Source of the DNA: a bacterium
GTDB taxonomy: Bacteria > Patescibacteriota > CPR2 > UBA1875 > JAJYID01
DNA length: 64,000 nucleotides
Direction of reading: 5' to 3'
Assembly: GCA_021787535.1 (NCBI GenBank)
Contig: JAJYLR010000001.1
Coordinates: forward strand, 556,321 to 620,320
Shown: piece by piece, positions 16,714 through 60,494 of the stretch
Numbering within the stretch: position 1 is the stretch's first letter
How the letters are laid out: the number at the start of each line of letters is the position of its first letter
Notes under the pieces: generated by a model
Database searches by the model: none
The model's input: only the letters and a program-made list of their open reading frames with translations
Told to the model about the DNA's origin: nothing
Position numbers and translations under genes: made by a program

Positions 16714-17202
16714 TCACATCAAATATTTCTCTTTGACAAATTTATCAAAGCTGAGATCATAAAATTCTTGTATCGGATAAGAAATAAATTTATTTTCTTG
16801 CGGTAATACAACCTCGCTAATGCCGGATTCCATTAAGATTCTGCTGCAATGTGCGCAGAAAGAATCTTCCGTGGAATAGAGTTTATCTCCTTTGGCATAA
16901 GTCGAGTACAGAGTCGCGCCTTTCGGATCATGGCCTTTCTCGAGAGTATCAACGAGCGCTCTTTCTTCCGCGTGCATGGCAAAGCAAAGTTCGGTTTTCA
17001 CGCCTTTCTCTAGCATATCTAAGAGACAGGTTTCACAGCTATGTTGAAGCGGACCGTTATATCCTTCCCCTATTACTTTCCCGTCTTTTACTAAAACCGC
17101 GCCGATTCTTCTAACCGGACAAATCACTTTGCCTGAGATGCCGGCCGCTTTTTCCAAATATTTTTTAGCGCTTTCGCGCTCTTTGCTCTCTAATATTTCC
17201 AT
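16714..17202 (-). CDS. CMP/dCMP deaminase zinc-binding protein (dCMP deaminase/ComEB-like)
   Basis: 162 aa; HAEERAL (H-A-E zinc and catalytic motif) and a downstream CAHCSRIL (CxxC) motif. Confidence 0.7.
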   Translation of the reverse strand: MEILESKERESAKKYLEKAAGISGKVICPVRRIGAVLVKDGKVIGEGYNGPLQHSCETCLLDMLEKGVKTELCFAMHAEERALVDTLEKGHDPKGATLYSTYAKGDKLYSTEDSFCAHCSRILMESGISEVVLPQENKFISYPIQEFYDLSFDKFVKEKYLM

Positions 17203-17247
17203 AAAAAATAATTCAATAGGGATTTTCGTTATTCAAACACCAAACTT

Positions 17248-17334
17248 TGGTGCCGCGGGGGAGACTCGAACTCCCAATCCGGTTAAGGAACTAGTTCCTA
17301 AGACTAGCGCGTATACCAATTCCGCCACCGCGGC
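17248..17334 (-). tRNA. tRNA-Leu (anticodon UAG), with encoded CCA
   Basis: Reverse complement GCCGCGG...CTAGT-CTTAGGA-ACTAG...GGGAGTTCGAGTCTCCC-CCGCGGC-A-CCA. It has a 7-bp acceptor stem, anticodon loop CU-UAG-GA, a long variable arm and a GTTCGAGTC T-loop. Confidence 0.85.
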
Positions 17335-17432
17335 TAAATGTTGAACTATTCTATCATGTATCCTTACCGAAGTTAAGCATAAAAATCAAGTATTGGTTCC
17401 ATTCAATTACCAAAAAATTATGCAAAGAGAAA

Positions 17433-17454
17433 GGGCGCCTTTATTAAGGCGCCC
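17433..17454. terminator. Hairpin gggcgcctTTATTaaggcgccc flanked by A/T runs
   Basis: 8-bp GC stem. The minus-strand reading is followed by tttctctttgcataatttttt, so it could terminate a minus-strand transcript from the ORF-free region 17460-18300. Confidence 0.45.
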
Positions 17455-18030
17455 AGTTGCGATCAATAAAACGTGGGGAAATAAGAGATCGCAATATTCA
17501 CACAGTGCACTTATTACTTAAATTAATGAGATGACTTTCCCCAAAATCATCTCTTTCATCATAGCTTTTCCGTTTCTGTCTTTTTATCTAAGATGGTCTT
17601 CCATCAAGTGTGAAGCACTTTGACCCTTCAGAGTTGGAGTTATAGAACTCGAGCTCGGATCTAGTATTTACAACACTCTTTAAAAGGTCTTAGCATCGAC
17701 AACTACGGTACTTGCTACGACGGCTACTGATCTTTTCTTTTGCCCCTAACAATCTACCGTCGGCCGGAGTGCAAGTGATTTTGCCTACTCAAGACCGATT
17801 TCGGTCAAGGGAAACTGGCGCAATTCTCTTACAGCTACTCGAGCCCAATTGGTAAAGGGTATGTGACGACAAAAGTACCCAATCAGTAACACTAAATATG
17901 ATACACTAACTTCAAAATTTTGTCAACATTTTTCTGGCTCTCTAACCTTTAGCGTGGTAAATTCGTGCTTACTTGAGCACAAAAAAGTTGTCCGGACAAG
18001 TTTTAGAGTAAATTAATTTTTTTGCGTCTT

Positions 18031-18108
18031 GTCATTCTGGCTTGTCCAGAATCAATTTTTAAGATTTAAGGAAAAGGATTCCGGTCTCCTAATCGTCGCC
18101 AGAATGAC
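18031..18108. repeat. Composite palindromic repeat gtcattctggcttgtccagaatc ... gccagaatgac
   Basis: An inner hairpin attctgg/ccagaat plus an outer inverted repeat gtcattctggc/gccagaatgac 55 nt apart. The same 23-mer recurs at 21171, 55912 and 60215. Confidence 0.65.
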
Positions 18109-18448
18109 AATACTCATAAGATTTATTATTGCCAAGATTTACCACGCTAATCGGCGAAGAGTCCCATTTTTCTGATTTTTTAATTCCCTAAATTAAAAAG
18201 TCCCTTACGAGATCAAAAAACGTTTCGCATTAATTAGTGAAAAATGAAAAACAAACTAGAGTCTTCTTCCTTAGCAACTTACTAGCTTATCAACCATATT
18301 TCTTATTTAAAAGGCGCGGGGTCGCCGCGCCTTTCCGCTCGGATAGCGGCAATCCTGCTTATAAAGATAAGCACATATAAATTACTTATCCACCACCCTT
18401 AGATAAATTTTACAGCCGCCAAAAATCCAAAACAAGTATACAAAAATT

Positions 18449-18480
18449 AGCGGAGACTTACGTAAGTCTCCGCTTTTGTT
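18449..18480. terminator. Bidirectional terminator agcggagacttACGtaagtctccgct + TTTT
   Basis: 11-bp perfect stem with T tracts on both strands, immediately after the stop of the minus-strand 77-aa gene at 18480. Confidence 0.65.
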
Positions 18481-18713
18481 TAGCCATTTTCTGCTTCCTT
18501 GATGATCTCTTCCGGAATGTCCAATTTGTGTTTTTTGCAAAAATCACTTAACGACATTCCCGAATCAGCATCAATCCATATTGCCTCCAAATCAGGACAA
18601 TCATCGATACCCCAGAGGAGTATTTCCAGAACCTTCTCGGCACTTTCTATAGAGATATTCCATTTTTGGCTGGCATACGATGCAAGGGTTGTTTCGTCCA
18701 CCTTCATGCCCAT
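18480..18713 (-). CDS. Hypothetical small acidic protein (77 aa)
   Basis: ORF MGMKVDETTLASYASQKWNISIESAEKVLEILLWGIDDCPDLEAIWIDADSG...; 13-nt spacing to the upstream gene and shared terminator. Confidence 0.5.
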   Translation of the reverse strand: MGMKVDETTLASYASQKWNISIESAEKVLEILLWGIDDCPDLEAIWIDADSGMSLSDFCKKHKLDIPEEIIKEAENG

Positions 18714-18725
18714 TTCGCTTCCCCC

Positions 18726-19382
18726 TTACCCAGTATAGGTTTCGTAAATGTGGTAAGCCATGAGAACCTTGTCCATCCATCTTTCCTTGTGAACATCCTT
18801 TACAAGTTCCTCTAGCATCTCCCAGAGCGTTATGTCGGGAAGAGCGCGGAAATCGTCCTCGCCGATTCTGATACCACCCTTGGTATGCCAGTAGTCCGGC
18901 ACCTGGTAGAACTTCTTCTCTCCGAGAAGGCATGTCTGAATGTTGAAGAAAGACCTGCCTTTTGAGAGATTATATCTCTCGATCGGCTCCTTCATCGACT
19001 CTTCTTCATCCGCCTCGTCGAGAATATTGAACATCGGCCAGATAATACTCTCATCCGAAATGCCAACTTTGCAATAACTATTGTTCCTCTCGTCAATGTT
19101 TTCCACGACAATGAAAGGAACCGTCATGTCATTTGGCATCTGATTCCAGACTTCTTTGCATTTTAAGCAAGGCAGACCCGGCAAATCTCTCTCAAACAGA
19201 TCCGGCGAAAACACAAAGTTGTTGACGCAAGGATTATCTTCAATCCCCAGAGCCGCTTTGGCATGCCGCTTGCAACAAAAAAGCATTTTCCCCATTGGCC
19301 AGGCGCTGCCAACCAAATCGACGCCACAATTTCTATAACCGCACTGTCCCATCGAATGCAAAGCTCTAGCTGCTTCGGTCAT
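18726..19382 (-). CDS. Hypothetical Cys-rich protein (218 aa), putative zinc-binding N-terminus
   Basis: N-terminal CGYRNC...CCKRH...C...C..C cluster. GC-richer than its neighbours. Its own promoter has an extended -10 (TGCTAAAAT, minus strand about 19440). Confidence 0.5.
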   Translation of the reverse strand: MTEAARALHSMGQCGYRNCGVDLVGSAWPMGKMLFCCKRHAKAALGIEDNPCVNNFVFSPDLFERDLPGLPCLKCKEVWNQMPNDMTVPFIVVENIDERNNSYCKVGISDESIIWPMFNILDEADEEESMKEPIERYNLSKGRSFFNIQTCLLGEKKFYQVPDYWHTKGGIRIGEDDFRALPDITLWEMLEELVKDVHKERWMDKVLMAYHIYETYTG

Positions 19383-20631: not shown

Positions 20632-20981
20632 TTTTTACTCTCTAGGACTTGGATCCTTATCCCAAGCGCACCATATTTTTCCTCTTTTTCCTTCGGATAG
20701 TAGTTCACATAAGTTGATGATATAAAATCTTCCCTGTTCCAGTTTCTAAAATGCCTTTCGCCCAGCAAATCATAAAGTTCGCCAAACGTTTTGCAAGATA
20801 TTAGTTCAACTACCTCAACCAAGAGTTTTTCAGCTAAATCAGGTCTTTTTAAGAACTCAATTTTGTCGCCAATCCTAAGTTTCTGCCTTTTCTCATCATT
20901 AAGCCGCACTTCGACAGTCTTTTCTCCGCTTTTCAGCTCTTCGAAGGGTCGTGCATTTAATCTCATATAATGTGTTTTCAT
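20628..20981 (-). CDS. ASCH domain protein
   Basis: 117 aa; MKTHYMRLNARPFEELKSGEKTVEVRLNDEKR... resembles the ASCH (PUA-like) beta-barrel N-terminus. 4-nt start/stop overlaps with both neighbours. Confidence 0.55.
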   Translation of the reverse strand: MKTHYMRLNARPFEELKSGEKTVEVRLNDEKRQKLRIGDKIEFLKRPDLAEKLLVEVVELISCKTFGELYDLLGERHFRNWNREDFISSTYVNYYPKEKEEKYGALGIRIQVLESKK

Positions 20982-21418
20982 AAACTTACCTGATTCTTAA
21001 TTTGCTCAAATTTACTTTCTCCGATTCCCGGCACTTTTTTCAAATCTTCCAGTACTTTAAATAATCCGTTTTGGTTGCGCCAATCAATGATTTTTTGTGC
21101 CGTTGCCGGACCGATGCCCTGTAGCTTATCTAAATCTTGCAAATCGGCGGTGTTTATATTAATTTTTGCCGTCATTCTGGCTTGTCCAGAATCTGTCTGC
21201 CCGCCCTTTACTTCAGAATTTGTCTGAATGTCAGTCTTTTGCGGCTGGACAATTTTAATCGGCTCTTTGCCGTCATCCGAATATTTAATAAAGAGCAGTC
21301 CTGTCCCGCCGATAATACCGATCACCAGTAAAATGCCTATGTTATTATAGATTCTCTGTCTTCTATCCTTTTTTTGATCTTGATCCATAAAACCTTTAAT
21401 ATTCAATGCCGAAAACAT
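20978..21418 (-). CDS. comEA: ComEA-like helix-hairpin-helix DNA-binding protein
   Basis: N-terminal TM segment and C-terminal INTADLQDLDKLQGIGPATAQKIIDWRNQNG.F..LEDLKKVPGIG (tandem HhH). Contains an in-frame copy of the 23-nt repeat encoding DSGQARMT. Confidence 0.75.
   Translation of the reverse strand: MFSALNIKGFMDQDQKKDRRQRIYNNIGILLVIGIIGGTGLLFIKYSDDGKEPIKIVQPQKTDIQTNSEVKGGQTDSGQARMTAKININTADLQDLDKLQGIGPATAQKIIDWRNQNGLFKVLEDLKKVPGIGESKFEQIKNQVSL
21171..21193. repeat. Palindromic repeat gtcattctggcttgtccagaatc inside comEA coding sequence (in frame)
   Basis: Identical 23-mer to 18031 and 55912. On the minus strand it translates as ...DSGQARMT... within the ComEA ORF. Confidence 0.7.
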
Positions 21419-35421: not shown

Positions 35422-37956
35422 CTATACTGTCCTTGCCTTGCCTCGGCCGGTTTTTACTTCAAGCACATAAAACTGAAGCGAGTCTTCCATTTTCATAACA
35501 GAGATCAGATCGCCTTCTTTGAATTTGCCGGAAAGCATGCCTTCGGCAAGCGGAGATTCTACATAGTTTTCTATAGCCCGCCTCATCGGCCTTGCGCCAT
35601 TTTCGACATCATAGCCCTTTTCCATCAGAAATTTCTTGGCGCTTTCGGAAACTTTGATTACGATATTTTTCTCTTTCAATCTGTCCCCGAGTTCCTTCAG
35701 TTGAAGATTGACAATTTGTTTGACATCCTTTTTTGACAGGGCTTTGAAAACTACAATTTTATCGATACGGTTAATAAACTCCGGCCTGAACTTCGTCTTT
35801 ACTATGTCCAGTACTTCTTCGCTGATTTTCTTATGCAGCATTTCAAGCTCTTTCTCCTCAGTCCCGCTTACGGCGTTAAACCCAAGTTTTGCGGTCCTAA
35901 ACATTTTCTCAGCCCCGACATTTGAGGTCATGATAATGATGGTATTTTTAAAGTCAACCTTTAACCCTTTGGCATCGGAAAGATAGCCGTCTTCCATGAT
36001 CTGCAGGAACATGTTGAAGACATCCGGATGGGCTTTTTCTATTTCATCAAGCAAAATGACTGAATACGGCTTGCGCCTGACGATTTCCGTCAGCTGGCCG
36101 GCTTCCTCATAACCGACATAACCGGCCGGCGCGCCGATCAGCCGGGCTACATTATGCTTTTCCATAAATTCGCTCATATCCAGTTTTATGAGCATATCCT
36201 CGGAGTTAAACATTTCCGCTGCCAGAGCTTTCGCCAGTTCGGTCTTTCCTACACCGGTAGGACCTAAGAAAATGAATGTGCCGATCGGTTTTTTCTCATT
36301 TGATATGCCGGTTCTGGCCCGCCTGATAGCTGCCGCTACTTCATGAATCGCCTCATCCTGACCGATAATTCGTTTTTTTAGATTTCTTTCCATATTCAGA
36401 AGACTTTCACTCTCTTTTTTGACTAACCGGGTAATAGGAATGCCGGTCGTGATTGCTACAACTTCTGCAATATTTTCTGAGGTAATCTCCGGTTCCTGAT
36501 ATTCTTTGGTAATCTTCTTCAGATTGCGAATCTTTGCCTCCAGAAGCTCTTCTTTCTGCTTATACTCAGCCGCTATGATATATTTCGCCCCGATAACCGC
36601 GTCTTCTTTTTTGCCCACCACGTTTTTCAGCTCTTTTTCGAGTTCTTTCAGAGTTTTGGAAGGATTTTTGCCGGTTTTGATTTTTAAAAGACTGGCCGCT
36701 TCATCTATTAGATCAATAGCTTTATCCGGCAAAAACCTGTCTGAGATGTAGCGTTTAGAAAGTTTCACGGCTGATTCAAGCGCCTCATCGCTAATTTTGA
36801 CCTTATGATAATCTTCGTAACTATTTCTGATGCCTTTCAAAATCTGCAAAGTTTCTTCGGGAGTCGGTTCGGTCAGAGTCACCGGCTGAAAGCGCCTCTC
36901 AAGAGCGGCATCTTTTTCGATGTACTTTCTGTAGTCATCAAATGTAGTTGCGCCGATCACCTGAATTTCTCCCCGCGACAGCGCCGGCTTTAAAATATTT
37001 GCCGCATCTATTGCCCCTTCGGCCGCACCGGCGCCAACAATGGTATGGATTTCATCGATGAAAAGAACTATTTCCTTGTTGGTTTTTAAATTCTCAACAA
37101 TTTTCTTCAGCCGTTCTTCGAACTCGCCCCGATACTTAGTCCCCGCAATGACGCTTGCCATATCCAGCATTAAGATTTTTTTGCCGATAAGCTGTTCCGG
37201 AACTTTTTCTGCAATAATTCTTTGAGCGAGGCCTTCAACTAACGCCGTTTTGCCTACTCCCGGTTCACCGATAAGCACCGGGTTGTTTTTAGTTCTGCGG
37301 TTTAGAATGGAGATCACCCGGGAAATTTCTTTTTCCCTGCCGACTATGGGATCAAATTCTTTATTCCTTGCTTTTTCTGTAAAATCAACGCTGTAAGATT
37401 CTAGAGCTTTGTCCCCATTTGCGCTTTGCCTGCCCATATACCCTCTGCTCGGCCCATTCATCGGCTGATCAACTGTAAAATCTTCACCATAAGCCGCCAT
37501 GTTCTCACCCGAGGCCCGTTCCAGAAATCTATCCAGTTCACTTGATAAGGCCACTACTCCTACACTGCTTTTTTTCAACGCTTCGTAGGCCTTTGATCTT
37601 TTATCCATCAGAAGCGCCCTTAAAATATGCTCGGTGCCGATGTAGTTGGACTGATAATTCTTACCGAGACCCATAGCCACTTCTAAGGAATTTTTTGCGG
37701 TTTCAGTTAAGGTAGCTAAAGTACTTTGCGTTTGGATCTCATTGCCAATATGGCCCATTGAGAATTTCTCTTTTTCACCCAGAAAGCCCTGGCTTTTCAA
37801 AAGGCGCGAACCGACTGAGTCGCTCACAAGGAAAATTCCCAGCAAAATATCATCGGTATCAATGTCTGACTTTTTTGCCTTTGCTATCTCCTGAGCATTC
37901 AGCAAACTTTGTTTAGCATTGCTTGTAAATCTCGCAAAAAGATTGAATTTTTCCAT
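35422..37956 (-). CDS. clpC: ATP-dependent Clp protease ATP-binding subunit ClpC-like (two AAA+ modules)
   Basis: Clp_N repeats, Walker A GEPGVGKT and [11 protein letters not shown]+ sensor motifs. Start assigned to MEKFNLF (SD AAGGGGGA). Confidence 0.9.
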
Positions 37957-38018
37957 TTGTCCCCCTTTCTTACTTATGAAGCCCATATCAACTTCAAAAG
38001 AATTTTAAAATCCTGCAA

Positions 38019-55178: not shown

Positions 55179-56669
55179 CTAAACCTTTGGTTTATATTTT
55201 CTCCACTCTTCATTCCCTGTTGCTTTTTCGAACTGATGCGCAACATTCAGTATCTTCGCCTCTTCAAAATGTCCTCCAATAATCTGTATCCCGATCGGCA
55301 ATTTATCAGTTGAAAATCCAGCCGGGACAGAGATTGCCGGAAGACCTGCCAGACTTACCGGAACCGTGAAAACGTCCGCCAAATACATAGAAACAGGATC
55401 TGCCTTTTCGCCAATTTTAAACGCCGGGGTCGGCGCCGTCGGTGTCAGTATCACGTCAACGTGCTCAAATGCCTTTATAAAATCATCATGAATTAATCTC
55501 CTGACTTTGGCCGCCTTCATAAAATATGCATCGTAGTAGCCGCTTGATAAAACATAAGCCCCAAGCATAATTCTCCTCTTTGCCTCGTCGCCGAATCCTT
55601 CATCGCGTGTTTTGAAGTAAGAATCAATTAAATCCTTTGAATTTTTGGCTGAAAAGCCGTATTTTACCCCATCATATCGACCCAAGTTTGAGGATGTTTC
55701 GGCTGTCATTATGATGTAGTACGCCGCCAGCGCATATTCCGTATGAGGCAGGCTGATTTCAATAACTTCTGCTCCCATTTTTTCAAGGGTTAACAAAGAT
55801 TGCTTAAACACCTCGCCAACCTCATCAAATAGTCCCAGCCCAAAATACTCTTTTGGTACGCCTATTTTTAGGCCTTCGATGCCCTTATTCAAATCCTTGG
55901 TGAAATCGGTTGTCATTCTGGCTTGTCCAGAATCGTCCTTTAGTGTGGTCGCATCCTTCGGATCTTCCCCTGCAATCACATTCAAAACTATTGCCGCATC
56001 CTCCACTGTCTTCGTTATCGGCCCGGGACAATCCAGCGATGAGCCCATGGCAATCAGCCCATAACGCGAAACCCTGCCGTATGTCGGCTTTAGGCCTACC
56101 ACCCCGCAGAAACTCGCCGGCTGGCGAATAGATCCGCCGGTGTCTGTGCCAATGGAATATGGCACTTCGCCTGCCGCTACAGCTGCCGCCGAGCCTCCTG
56201 AAGAACCGCCGGAAACCCGGGCCAAATCCCAAGGATTGGGCGTCACACCATAATCGGAGTTCTCAGTTGAGGAACCATGCGCCCAAGCATCACAGTTGTT
56301 TTTTCCGACAACTATTGCTCCGGAGTCTTTTAATTTCTTAACTACGGTCGCATCATACGGCGGAACAAAGTTATCCAGCATCTTGGCACTCGCCGTCGTC
56401 CGCAAATTCCTCGTACAAATCACATCCTTAATCCCCACCGGAATACCTTGCAGAGGACTGTCCTCTGCACTACCGCCTTTGTCATTCTGAGCGACTTCCT
56501 GAAAGGACGAGTCGAAGAATCCCTTTCCCTCGACATCTTCCGCCGTAAGTGTCGTCACGAAAGCATGCAGCTTCGGCTCAACTTCCTTAATCCTACTCAA
56601 ACAAGCAGACAAAATCTCCCGCTTATCCTCTTTTTCTAATTCTTTAATTGGTAAATCTGTAATTTTCAT
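55179..56669 (-). CDS. gatA: Glutamyl-tRNA(Gln) amidotransferase subunit A
   Basis: Amidase signature ([20 protein letters not shown]...T.AS). Start assigned to [11 protein letters not shown]. Carries two in-frame palindromic-repeat insertions. Confidence 0.92.
55912..55934. repeat. 23-nt palindromic repeat gtcattctggcttgtccagaatc inside gatA (in frame, encodes DSGQARMT)
   Basis: Identical to the copies at 18031 and 21171. Confidence 0.7.
56480..56522. repeat. Palindromic repeat gtcattctgagcgacttcctgaaaggacgagtcgaagaatcc inside gatA 5' region (in frame, encodes [14 protein letters not shown])
   Basis: GTCATTC...GAATCC family. It replaces the normally variable loop between the N-terminal helix and the GIP(V/I)(A/G)IKD motif. 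Confidence 0.7.
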
Positions 56670-56749
56670 TTCTCTTTCCCTAAATAGGTCGGATCCTTGC
56701 GTGCTCGCCAGGCCCGACCTCCCAGCAAGCAATTTTTTATTATTCTCTT

Positions 56750-59718: not shown

Positions 59719-60163
59719 AAGTAAATTATAGCGTAAAAAACACCGATTAACCACTGCCAATGCACTGATTTTTTTAGATTCCTTTGCCACTTTTTTCTCC
59801 GTTCCGGTAGTAAATCTCCATTTTGCTATTGACTTCTTAATAGAGATGACGTAATGTGTGAATATTCGTGCTTTTACTTCATTTTTTCGCTAGTATTTCT
59901 TGTAGCAATTGAACCTTTCATTTCAGCGTCGCGCTGGCACAATTCCTTTGCTTTCTCTTTATTGGATTGCTAGTGTAACCAGCAAAATAAAGCTTGAACG
60001 GAAACAGAGGGCTGACCCTCACATCTAATGATGTTAGGGCCGTAGGTTAAAACGTGTTTGCGAGACGGTTTTACCCGACGCCTACTGAATCTGTTCAATT
60101 GAGGTCTATGAAGCAGCTCTCTCCAGCTAACTTCCTCTAGGCCTCTTTTTCTTGCTCTTCTAA

Positions 60164-60196
60164 AGAAATCTTTTCCATAAAGCTATTATAACAAAC
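60164..60196 (-). pseudogene. Duplicated fragment of the ligA start region (RBS + first ~6 codons; ORF ends after 13 codons)
   Basis: agaaatcttttccataa + [A/T]-rich upstream matches 59706-59722 (17/17 nt). It would encode MEKISLEEQEKEA*, versus the ligA N-terminus MEKISLIEARKRA. Confidence 0.4.
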
Positions 60197-60214
60197 TTAA
60201 CCCTCTAATTCATC

Positions 60215-60296
60215 GTCATTCTGGCCTGCCCAGAATCCCGTAGAAATAGATCCTGGTCAAGCCAGGATGACAAAAAAACGGGATCCGAAATGACAT
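60215..60296. repeat. Composite palindromic repeat (gtcattctggcctgcccagaatc + atcctggtcaagccaggatgac + gggatccgaaatgac)
   Basis: Three consecutive hairpin units with GTCAT/ATGAC ends; the first is a 2-mismatch variant of the 23-mer at 18031. Confidence 0.65.
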
Positions 60297-60415
60297 GGTG
60301 AGCGGTAAATTATGCCAAAAAAGAGAGCCGAAACCTCTCTTTTTTACTATGTTCTAACTTGTTCAAATGATGGAATTGTTGGAATGAAACATTTAAGGAA
60401 AATGTAGGAGTTGAG

Positions 60416-60444
60416 TAATCGCTTCGCTTATTGGAATCGTTGGA
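60416..60444. repeat. Degenerate repeat copy taatcgcttcgcttattggaatcgttgg
   Basis: Matches 2403-2430 (gaatcgcttcgcttgttggaattgtcat) at 22/26 positions. Confidence 0.45.
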
Positions 60445-60494
60445 GACGTATGCAATAAGTCACAACTAAAGCAATGCAAAATTTCAAACTTTTT

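Follow-up and report, generated by a model that had tools for sequence, protein, structure and literature searches.

What occupies the longest stretch free of open reading frames (ORFs) in a densely coding part of an uncultured bacterial genome? The question is raised by positions 17345–18479 of the 64-kb segment of contig JAJYLR010000001.1 (Patescibacteriota, CPR2) analysed here in full and hereafter called the window. Our results suggest that this ORF-free kilobase is probably a series of minus-strand RNA genes in tandem, each with its own transcription, interrupted by one repeat insertion. In the direction of predicted transcription the order would be the terminator of an upstream operon, a small RNA (sRNA) of ~93 nucleotides (nt), the ~355-nt repeat insertion, a structured RNA of ~467 nt (the large RNA), and the promoter and gene of a tRNA-Leu (Table 1). 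Comparison of related loci shows the sRNA and the large RNA to be two separate, conserved, non-coding units of predicted structure, each with its own putative promoter and terminator, and always adjacent. Both appear to represent new RNA families and, in the genomes sampled, are restricted to an uncultured lineage for which few sequences exist.

A preliminary description of this DNA had reported about 1.1 kb without an ORF of 60 amino acids (aa) or more. This is borne out: no such ORF with an ATG, GTG or TTG start lies in any of the six frames of 17345–18479, where stop-to-stop frames reach at most 58 aa. The gap ranks first among the ORF-free gaps of the window, ahead of one of 704 nt at 59791–60494, and ORFs cover 90% of the 64 kb. 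As shuffled copies of the window yield ORF-free gaps of 1.6–3.6 kb, the gap is notable solely against the coding density of the genome. Other features reported earlier were recovered as well. GC content is 45–46% across 17600–17900 compared with 32–37% in both flanks, and the three GC-rich stem-loops lie at 17433–17454, 18310–18334 and 18449–18474. These hairpins, described before as terminators, correspond to the predicted terminators of three separate minus-strand transcription units, and all promoter and terminator signals of the region are consistent on that strand, reading from 18480 to 17335.

Table 1. Features of the ORF-free region and its borders, in minus-strand order (window coordinates)
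Feature	Position	Strand	Description
Bidirectional intrinsic terminator of upstream minus-strand operon	18449..18474	-	11-bp stem and T-run; directly after the gene for a 77-aa protein (18480-18713)
sRNA promoter, sigma-70 type	18407..18435	-	-35 TTGTTT (18435-18430), 17-nt spacer, -10 TAAAAT (18412-18407)
sRNA gene	18308..18400	-	~93 nt; predicted transcription start near 18400; H1, H2, terminator
sRNA hairpin H1	18372-18357	-	GCUUA/UAAGC
sRNA hairpin H2	18349-18335	-	CCGCU/AGCGG
sRNA terminator	18334-18310	-	Hairpin followed by U's
Repeat insertion	17940..18300	.	~355 nt relative to nearest relative; nested inverted repeats; MITE- or REP-like
Large RNA promoter	17898..17926	-	TTGACA, 17 nt, TATCAT; 11/12 consensus positions; top match of promoter scan
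Large RNA gene	17892->17426	-	~467-nt promoter-to-terminator unit; 40% of region
Domain 1	17723..17892	-	~170-nt long irregular hairpin; minimum free energy (MFE) fold
Domain 2	17557..17722	-	~165-nt hairpin domain; closing helix CGUCGUAGC / GCUAUGAUG; MFE fold
Hairpin X	17528..17553	-	7-bp stem, 12-nt G-rich loop, UUUUGGGGAAAG
Hairpin Y	17458..17493	-	7-bp stem UGCGAUC/GAUCGCA; loop with UUUCCCCA, complementary to hairpin X loop
Large RNA intrinsic terminator	17425..17454	-	GGGCGCCUU-AAUA-AAGGCGCCC then UUUCUCUU
tRNA-Leu promoter	17348..17376	-	TTAACT, 17 nt, TG-TAGAAT (TG-extended); just upstream of tRNA
tRNA-Leu (anticodon TAG)	17248..17334	-	ARAGORN; Rfam 58.7 bits

Relatives of the locus are few. 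The flanking deoxycytidine monophosphate (dCMP) deaminase has just seven relatives in a collection of 5.8 billion proteins, and most contigs carrying its homologues are too short to span the region. Four loci on genome contigs (L002–L005) encode deaminases of 52–63% protein identity. Further loci were reached through homologues of ComEA (L081, L082, L085, L089–L091, L095 and L101); among them L082 (GCA_027342015.1) is the nearest relative of the window, L081 is labelled candidate division WS5 and L085 comes from Hainich groundwater. The lineage as a whole is probably WS5 or one related to it. The shared gene order runs from ComEA through variable small genes and the RNA region to tRNA-Leu, followed by either dCMP deaminase or trigger factor. 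An exact-pattern search for the sRNA over metagenome and viral contigs gave no match. The equivalent search with the pattern of hairpin X of the large RNA returned Hainich contigs already in the set and one high-GC match (L097), which is probably due to chance.

The sRNA is organised as a promoter, a variable 5′ segment, the conserved, predicted single-stranded UUAUCUYGWGCUUAU, hairpins H1 and H2 and a terminator, and holds the conserved segment UUAUCUCGAGCUUAU. Its −10 element and the part downstream, including the terminator, are kept in all ten genomes in which it was recovered, where the covariance model R1 returns one match per locus at 83–148 bits. Each of the 20 pairs in the R1 alignment is canonical throughout (100% of 200 pair cells) and six show compensatory changes; the observed score is reached by none of 500 shuffles, and slid controls pair at 28–51%. 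A −35 element TTGnnT, a spacer of exactly 17 nt and a −10 element TAnnAT are constant in the first four genomes aligned. This promoter is missing from the list given by a promoter scan of the region and its coordinates were read from the sequence. Among distant relatives, DNA-level conservation detected by nhmmer and blastn is limited to window positions 18305–18449, at ~71%. Insertions and deletions (indels) of 1–3 nt fall within the conserved parts of the sRNA, which excludes that it is coding.

Immediately upstream of the sRNA −35 element lies the motif TTTTTGTATAC (18436–18446), which shows no variation among the first four genomes aligned. This motif includes the palindromic GTATAC, overlaps the operon terminator's T-run and may serve as a binding site for a regulator or as an upstream promoter (UP) element. 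The 5′ third of the sRNA (18373–18400) differs strongly from L082 (11540–11575), where L082 resembles L003, while the flanking genes of the window and L082 are 72% to 89% identical and the adjacent large RNA 88%. The divergence of this segment so close to a well-conserved large RNA suggests recombination at the locus.

The large RNA unit is carried by L082 at 88% identity over 603 nt. Between the window and L082 the large RNA itself is 87% identical overall and domain 1 ~97%, compared with 56–82% at fourfold-degenerate sites of the flanking genes. More distantly, nhmmer connects the large RNA of the window with L085 (E = 4e-11) and that of L085 with L081 (E = 2e-28), and also links L002 with L101. 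We refer to the window, L082, L085 and L081 as type A and to L002 and L101 as type B, which is of the same length and has a body alignable only between its two members. The large RNA lies just downstream of the sRNA in the window, L082 and L002 and just upstream of it in L085, L081 and L101. At the loci with swapped order (L085 11453–12236, L081 12283–12958 and L101 6884–7531) the two RNA genes are still adjacent and on the same strand.

A promoter of the form TTGACA-17-TATCAT or TATCGT and a terminator are kept in all six large RNA genes, the sequence flanking the promoter being conserved too in L082, L085, L081, L002 and L101, and the MFE folds of the six RNAs share one layout of domain 1, domain 2, hairpin X, spacer, hairpin Y and terminator. 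Domain 1 measures ~150–190 nt among them and includes a helix UUUGUC/GACAAA. In the window its conserved strand UUUUGUCG is predicted to pair with GGCAAAAG, and its apical hairpin is GACCG-AAAU-CGGUC. Domain 2, of 165–240 nt among relatives, is closed by a CAUCGUG/CACGAUG-like helix that covaries: a C-G pair of the window becomes U-A in L082, and the helix reads CAUCGUG/CGCGAUG in L085 and CAUCGUG/CACGAUG in L081. The stem of hairpin X likewise covaries (UGA/UCA, as against UAG/CUA in L081) around a loop part, UUUUGGGGA, that does not vary among the four type A genomes and is replaced in type B by UUUAGGGGA or CAGGGGA. Hairpin Y follows after a spacer of 24–38 nt, with compensatory changes in three of its seven stem pairs. 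A CCCC loop directly precedes the terminator in all six large RNAs, on stems that differ or are unrelated, and five of the nine terminator pairs are compensatory across relatives.

Substitution patterns also point to a conserved structure. Differences between the window and L082 affect 12 of 222 confidently paired nucleotides compared with 50 of 247 unpaired ones (Fisher p = 2e-6), and nine of eleven changed pairs remain canonical, one of them fully compensatory. R3, a covariance model trained on the 3′ modules of the window, L082 and L085 but not on that of L081, recovers L081 at 39.5 bits (E = 8e-6). Across these four genomes the 3′ module has 23 pairs with 97.8% canonical cells and nine compensatory pairs, a result matched by none of 500 shuffles. 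As plain MAFFT alignment with RNAalifold gave no or poor consensus for the six large RNAs or for domain 1, our own pairing-profile alignment was used. For domain 1 it yields 42 pairs across the four genomes, 91.7% canonical and 13 compensatory, against 34–46% and 1–4 in slid controls. Compensatory changes, looked to earlier as a check on an RNA gene in this region, were thus found in the sRNA, the 3′ module and domain 1. The MFE z score of the large RNA is −4.1 in the window and −4.3 in L002; our own shuffles give −3.7 and place it lowest among 24 windows (background mean −0.96, standard deviation 1.1). In general terms both RNAs have the ordered and conserved promoter and terminator of a non-coding RNA gene, together with compensatory changes, in small samples. 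Of the large non-coding RNA that the preliminary description had hypothesised, what stands is this conserved structured unit; it accounts for just 40% of the region, the remainder being the second, smaller RNA and the repeat insertion.

Several points weigh against this interpretation. Covariation statistics are thin because only ten distinct sRNA and six distinct large RNA sequences were recovered, some of them closely related, and the alignments were model-fitted or guided by pairing profiles, which biases them toward structure. When distant pairs are aligned by sequence only, changes are not depleted in stems and the comparison is uninformative. Features common to types A and B are limited to the promoter, the 5′ UUUUGUCG segment, the position and the architecture, and R3 finds type B just weakly (20 and 16 bits, E = 0.085 and 0.5). 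The large RNA is missing at this locus in four of ten genomes, L003, L005 and L089 among them. The MFE z score of the plus strand is nearly as low (−3.7), and a coding stretch at 35800–36267, inside a gene for an 854-aa protein (35422–37986), has a folding z score of −3.59, near that of the large RNA. Transcription of both units is predicted from sequence signals only.

The two units could instead be cis-acting parts of neighbouring transcripts. They might belong to the upstream operon, as a long 3′ untranslated region (UTR) or an attenuator, or to tRNA-Leu, as its leader or precursor. Their common strand would suit such an arrangement, the terminators could serve as attenuators, and the T-run of the upstream terminator extends into the sRNA promoter. 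We nevertheless consider a cis-acting role unlikely, because gene content on both sides changes from one genome to another. Genes preceding the sRNA are unrelated, and in L003 and L089 it is followed by a convergent GGDEF gene, so that the sRNA is neither a leader nor a 3′ UTR. The reversed order of the two RNA genes in L085, L081 and L101 also argues against parts of a fixed transcript, as does the presence of a separate promoter and terminator for each unit. A further promoter, that of tRNA-Leu itself, lies downstream of the strong large RNA terminator and is conserved in L002 (29 of 38 positions) and in L082. At the other border, every relative has its own, differing hairpin at the position of the operon terminator. 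The genes for proteins of 77 and 218 aa directly upstream of the sRNA (18480–19382) have no significant Pfam match, and this interval is a variable slot beside the RNA genes, since relatives carry unrelated small genes there. A T-box or riboswitch leader was rejected because the downstream genes are unconserved, and a retron msr-msd because no reverse transcriptase is nearby.

Known families were sought with the 4227 covariance models of Rfam 15. Neither RNA was matched: cmscan of the 64-kb window at gathering score returned tRNA alone, a search of 17200–18600 at E ≤ 10 with permissive filters gave no non-coding RNA family match to either RNA, four homologous loci at E ≤ 5 gave none to either, and nine related loci gave tRNA only. 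The suggestion that the region might hold an RNA of the ROOL or GOLLD type accordingly failed, as no covariance model for ROOL, GOLLD, OLE, HEARO or raiA matched the large RNA, nor did those for RNase P RNA, transfer-messenger RNA (tmRNA) or 6S RNA. A literature search on WS5 and on non-coding RNAs of the candidate phyla radiation (CPR) found nothing describing either RNA.

A highly divergent housekeeping RNA missed by these models, namely RNase P RNA, tmRNA, 6S RNA or signal recognition particle (SRP) RNA, is a very improbable identity for the ~467-nt unit. Its size is near that of RNase P RNA and tmRNA, its promoter is strong, it stands beside a tRNA as a single copy per locus, and the window holds no other housekeeping RNA. 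Against this, permissive searches at E ≤ 10 returned no Rfam match from the window or four homologues, and ARAGORN reports no tmRNA. RNase P RNA is recognised by a P4 helix with CR-I (GGAAAGUCC-like) and CR-IV/V (ACAGAA...GGCUUA-like) in the correct order (RF00010/RF00011). As noted in the preliminary description, similar words occur here in the wrong order; ACAGAA and GGAAAGUC are present only in the window copy and are unconserved in L085, in L081 and even in L082, and no conserved P4 motif was found. A tmRNA combines a tRNA-like domain (acceptor stem, T-arm and 3′ CCA context) with a tag reading frame. The sole ARAGORN prediction for the window and for related loci is tRNA-Leu, no conserved tRNA-like acceptor or T-arm motif is present, and a permuted or two-piece tmRNA was rejected for lack of a T-arm and CCA context. 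6S RNA is a ~180-nt rod-like hairpin with a central bubble, and SRP RNA has a domain IV helix 8 with a GNRA loop and symmetric and asymmetric internal loops; neither has an Rfam match here, the sRNA being three short hairpins and the large RNA multi-domain. Unlike universally conserved catalytic cores, the body of the large RNA is unalignable between genomes that share 63% identity in the neighbouring protein, and this rapid divergence disfavours a catalytic housekeeping RNA. Its absence from this locus in some relatives points the same way.

Between the sRNA and the large RNA lies the insertion, which contains the inverted repeat reported earlier at 18031–18108 and corresponds to the composite palindromic repeat of the preliminary description. 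Its outer pair is a perfect 14-nt inverted repeat (17949–17962/18137–18150) and its inner pair spans 18014–18041/18098–18125, including GTCATTCTGGC / GCCAGAATGAC at 18031–18041/18098–18108; the whole folds as a long hairpin (DNA z = −4.65). L082 and L002 lack the insertion, and in both the large RNA promoter comes within ~15 nt after the sRNA terminator. Further copies of a dispersed 25-mer inside the insertion (CTTGTCATTCTGGCTTGTCCAGAAT, 18028–18052) and of the 11-nt motif GTCATTCTGGC lie at 21168, 55909 and 60215–60270 and in L003 and L006. With inverted repeats, dispersed copies and presence or absence between relatives, the insertion looks like a miniature inverted-repeat transposable element (MITE) or a repetitive extragenic palindromic (REP) element. 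It resembles REP elements, bacterial interspersed mosaic elements (BIMEs) and MITE-type repeats in its nested inverted repeats, in the 11-nt terminal motif (GTCATTCTGGC) and 25-mer common to its copies, in its variable presence between close relatives and in its intergenic location between convergent signals. Unlike a typical REP element or MITE it has no identified target-site duplication or transposase partner, and its half-copies also occur in frame within protein-coding genes (ComEA), which is unusual for REP elements. One 25-mer copy (21168–21192) lies inside a ComEA-like gene (20978–21418), where it is read as SGQARMT, the same peptide being present in the L003 ComEA; the repeat or half-copy appears to be tolerated in frame within a variable ComEA linker. 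Another copy (55909–55933) lies inside an ORF of 517 aa (55179–56732). The second-ranked ORF-free gap, 59791–60494, holds a composite copy of the repeat (GTCATTCTGGC...GCCAGGATGAC, 60215–60270) and a GC-richer part at ~60000–60140; it has no Rfam match and could be the site of another unannotated RNA.

Such an insertion next to a tRNA is what might be expected of a decayed integrated element, that is an island junction with pseudogenes in which hairpins and repeats are leftovers, as the preliminary description had offered as its alternative. The absence of the repeat from the nearest relative and the variable gene content beside the sRNA are compatible with this, yet it is among the least credible accounts of the region. 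An island junction typically has a tRNA 3′ end, a direct repeat of the tRNA 3′ segment and remnants of an integrase or cargo. The tRNA-Leu does adjoin the region, as pointed out before; its value as an integration site is doubtful here because the region lies 5′ (upstream) of the tRNA, and integrases usually act at the 3′ end. No second copy of the 3′ 25-mer of the tRNA (up to three mismatches) and no repeat resembling an attachment (att) site was found in the window. The check for pseudogene remnants, a tblastn search with ORFs of at least 40 aa from related loci, matched nothing beyond the RNA and repeat segments conserved at DNA level, and blastn against phage and plasmid collections gave no match. 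A tRNA-targeted junction was rejected for want of these marks and of gene remnants. Both RNA units are, in addition, syntenic in several genomes, with conserved promoters and compensatory changes.

It is equally improbable that the units encode proteins shorter than 60 aa and that their structure is incidental: several ORFs of 20–48 aa exist, including a 14-codon ATG ORF across hairpin X after a GGA and, as the longest on the minus strand of the large RNA unit, a 35-aa GTG ORF at the 5′ end, but the GTG of the latter is GCG in L082, the former, the sole ATG-started mini-ORF, is shifted there by a 2-nt indel, 1–2 nt indels relative to L085 occur throughout domain 1 and shift every frame, indels of up to 3 nt fall in the most conserved sRNA parts, and substitutions avoid paired positions and have no three-base periodicity. 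Public gene calls overlap the large RNA or its promoter in L081 (12573–12773, 66 aa, minus strand) and L101 (6733–7089, 118 aa), and are probably spurious ORFs on the RNA gene.

What might a cluster of two such RNA genes do? By analogy with known regulators, both RNAs may act in trans, a suggestion we make tentatively. The C-rich loop of the large RNA (UCCCC), placed just before the terminator, would pair with G-rich ribosome-binding sites, and the G-rich loop UUUUGGGGA 24–38 nt upstream could mask the C-rich loop or contact it within or between molecules. In low-GC Gram-positive bacteria, C-rich loops of RNAIII (Staphylococcus aureus) and of RsaE/RoxS base-pair with G-rich ribosome-binding sites. 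Like these RNAs, the large RNA has multiple hairpins, its own (predicted) transcription, an intrinsic terminator and a C-rich loop beside that terminator, and it is of similar length to RNAIII (514 nt). It differs in having no sequence or structural homology to them, no Rfam match and no delta-haemolysin-like ORF, in belonging to an unrelated, uncultured lineage, and in possessing an invariant G-rich loop whose sequence complements that of the C-rich loop. Regulation in trans of this kind has considerations against it. Ribosome-binding sites in the window are mostly AAGGAG-like rather than GGGG-rich, with GGGG in 3 of 53 upstream regions, which weakens a reading of the C-rich loop as an anti-Shine–Dalgarno element. 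Complementarity between the loops of hairpins X and Y is not significant against shuffled loops in any single genome, and a contact between them cannot show covariation as the GGGG/CCCC core never varies. Predicted duplexes between the sRNA and the large RNA were no better than shuffles and had no conserved site.

A more speculative proposal is that the ~467-nt RNA belongs to a new large structured class in which the G-rich and C-rich (UCCCC[A]) loops would kiss to form homo-oligomers, or in which the RNA would enter an RNA or ribonucleoprotein particle with the sRNA; this seems improbable. Structures of ROOL, GOLLD and OLE determined by cryo-electron microscopy show that kissing loops build RNA-only complexes, and ROOL and GOLLD are commonly found near tRNA genes (PMC12286853). 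The large RNA is similarly longer than 400 nt, highly structured by prediction, adjacent to a tRNA and furnished with complementary conserved loops. It is, however, shorter and faster evolving than those RNAs and lies in a non-prophage context without phage similarity, and its oligomerisation is pure speculation. Were it to occur, assembly would resemble that of ROOL, GOLLD and OLE, yet in a chromosomal, non-phage setting in an uncultured candidate phylum.

Whatever their function, the predicted RNA genes bear on how such genomes are read, since public annotations of metagenome-assembled genomes contain probably spurious gene calls on these RNAs. Bacterial non-coding RNAs longer than ~400 nt with conserved structure are rare, and OLE, GOLLD, ROOL, HEARO and raiA each led to unexpected biology. 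The coordinates, boundaries and conserved loops given here allow direct synthesis and testing of both molecules. The locus adds one large and one small RNA, both apparently new, which stay together across genomes of a candidate phylum that has been little studied by experiment.

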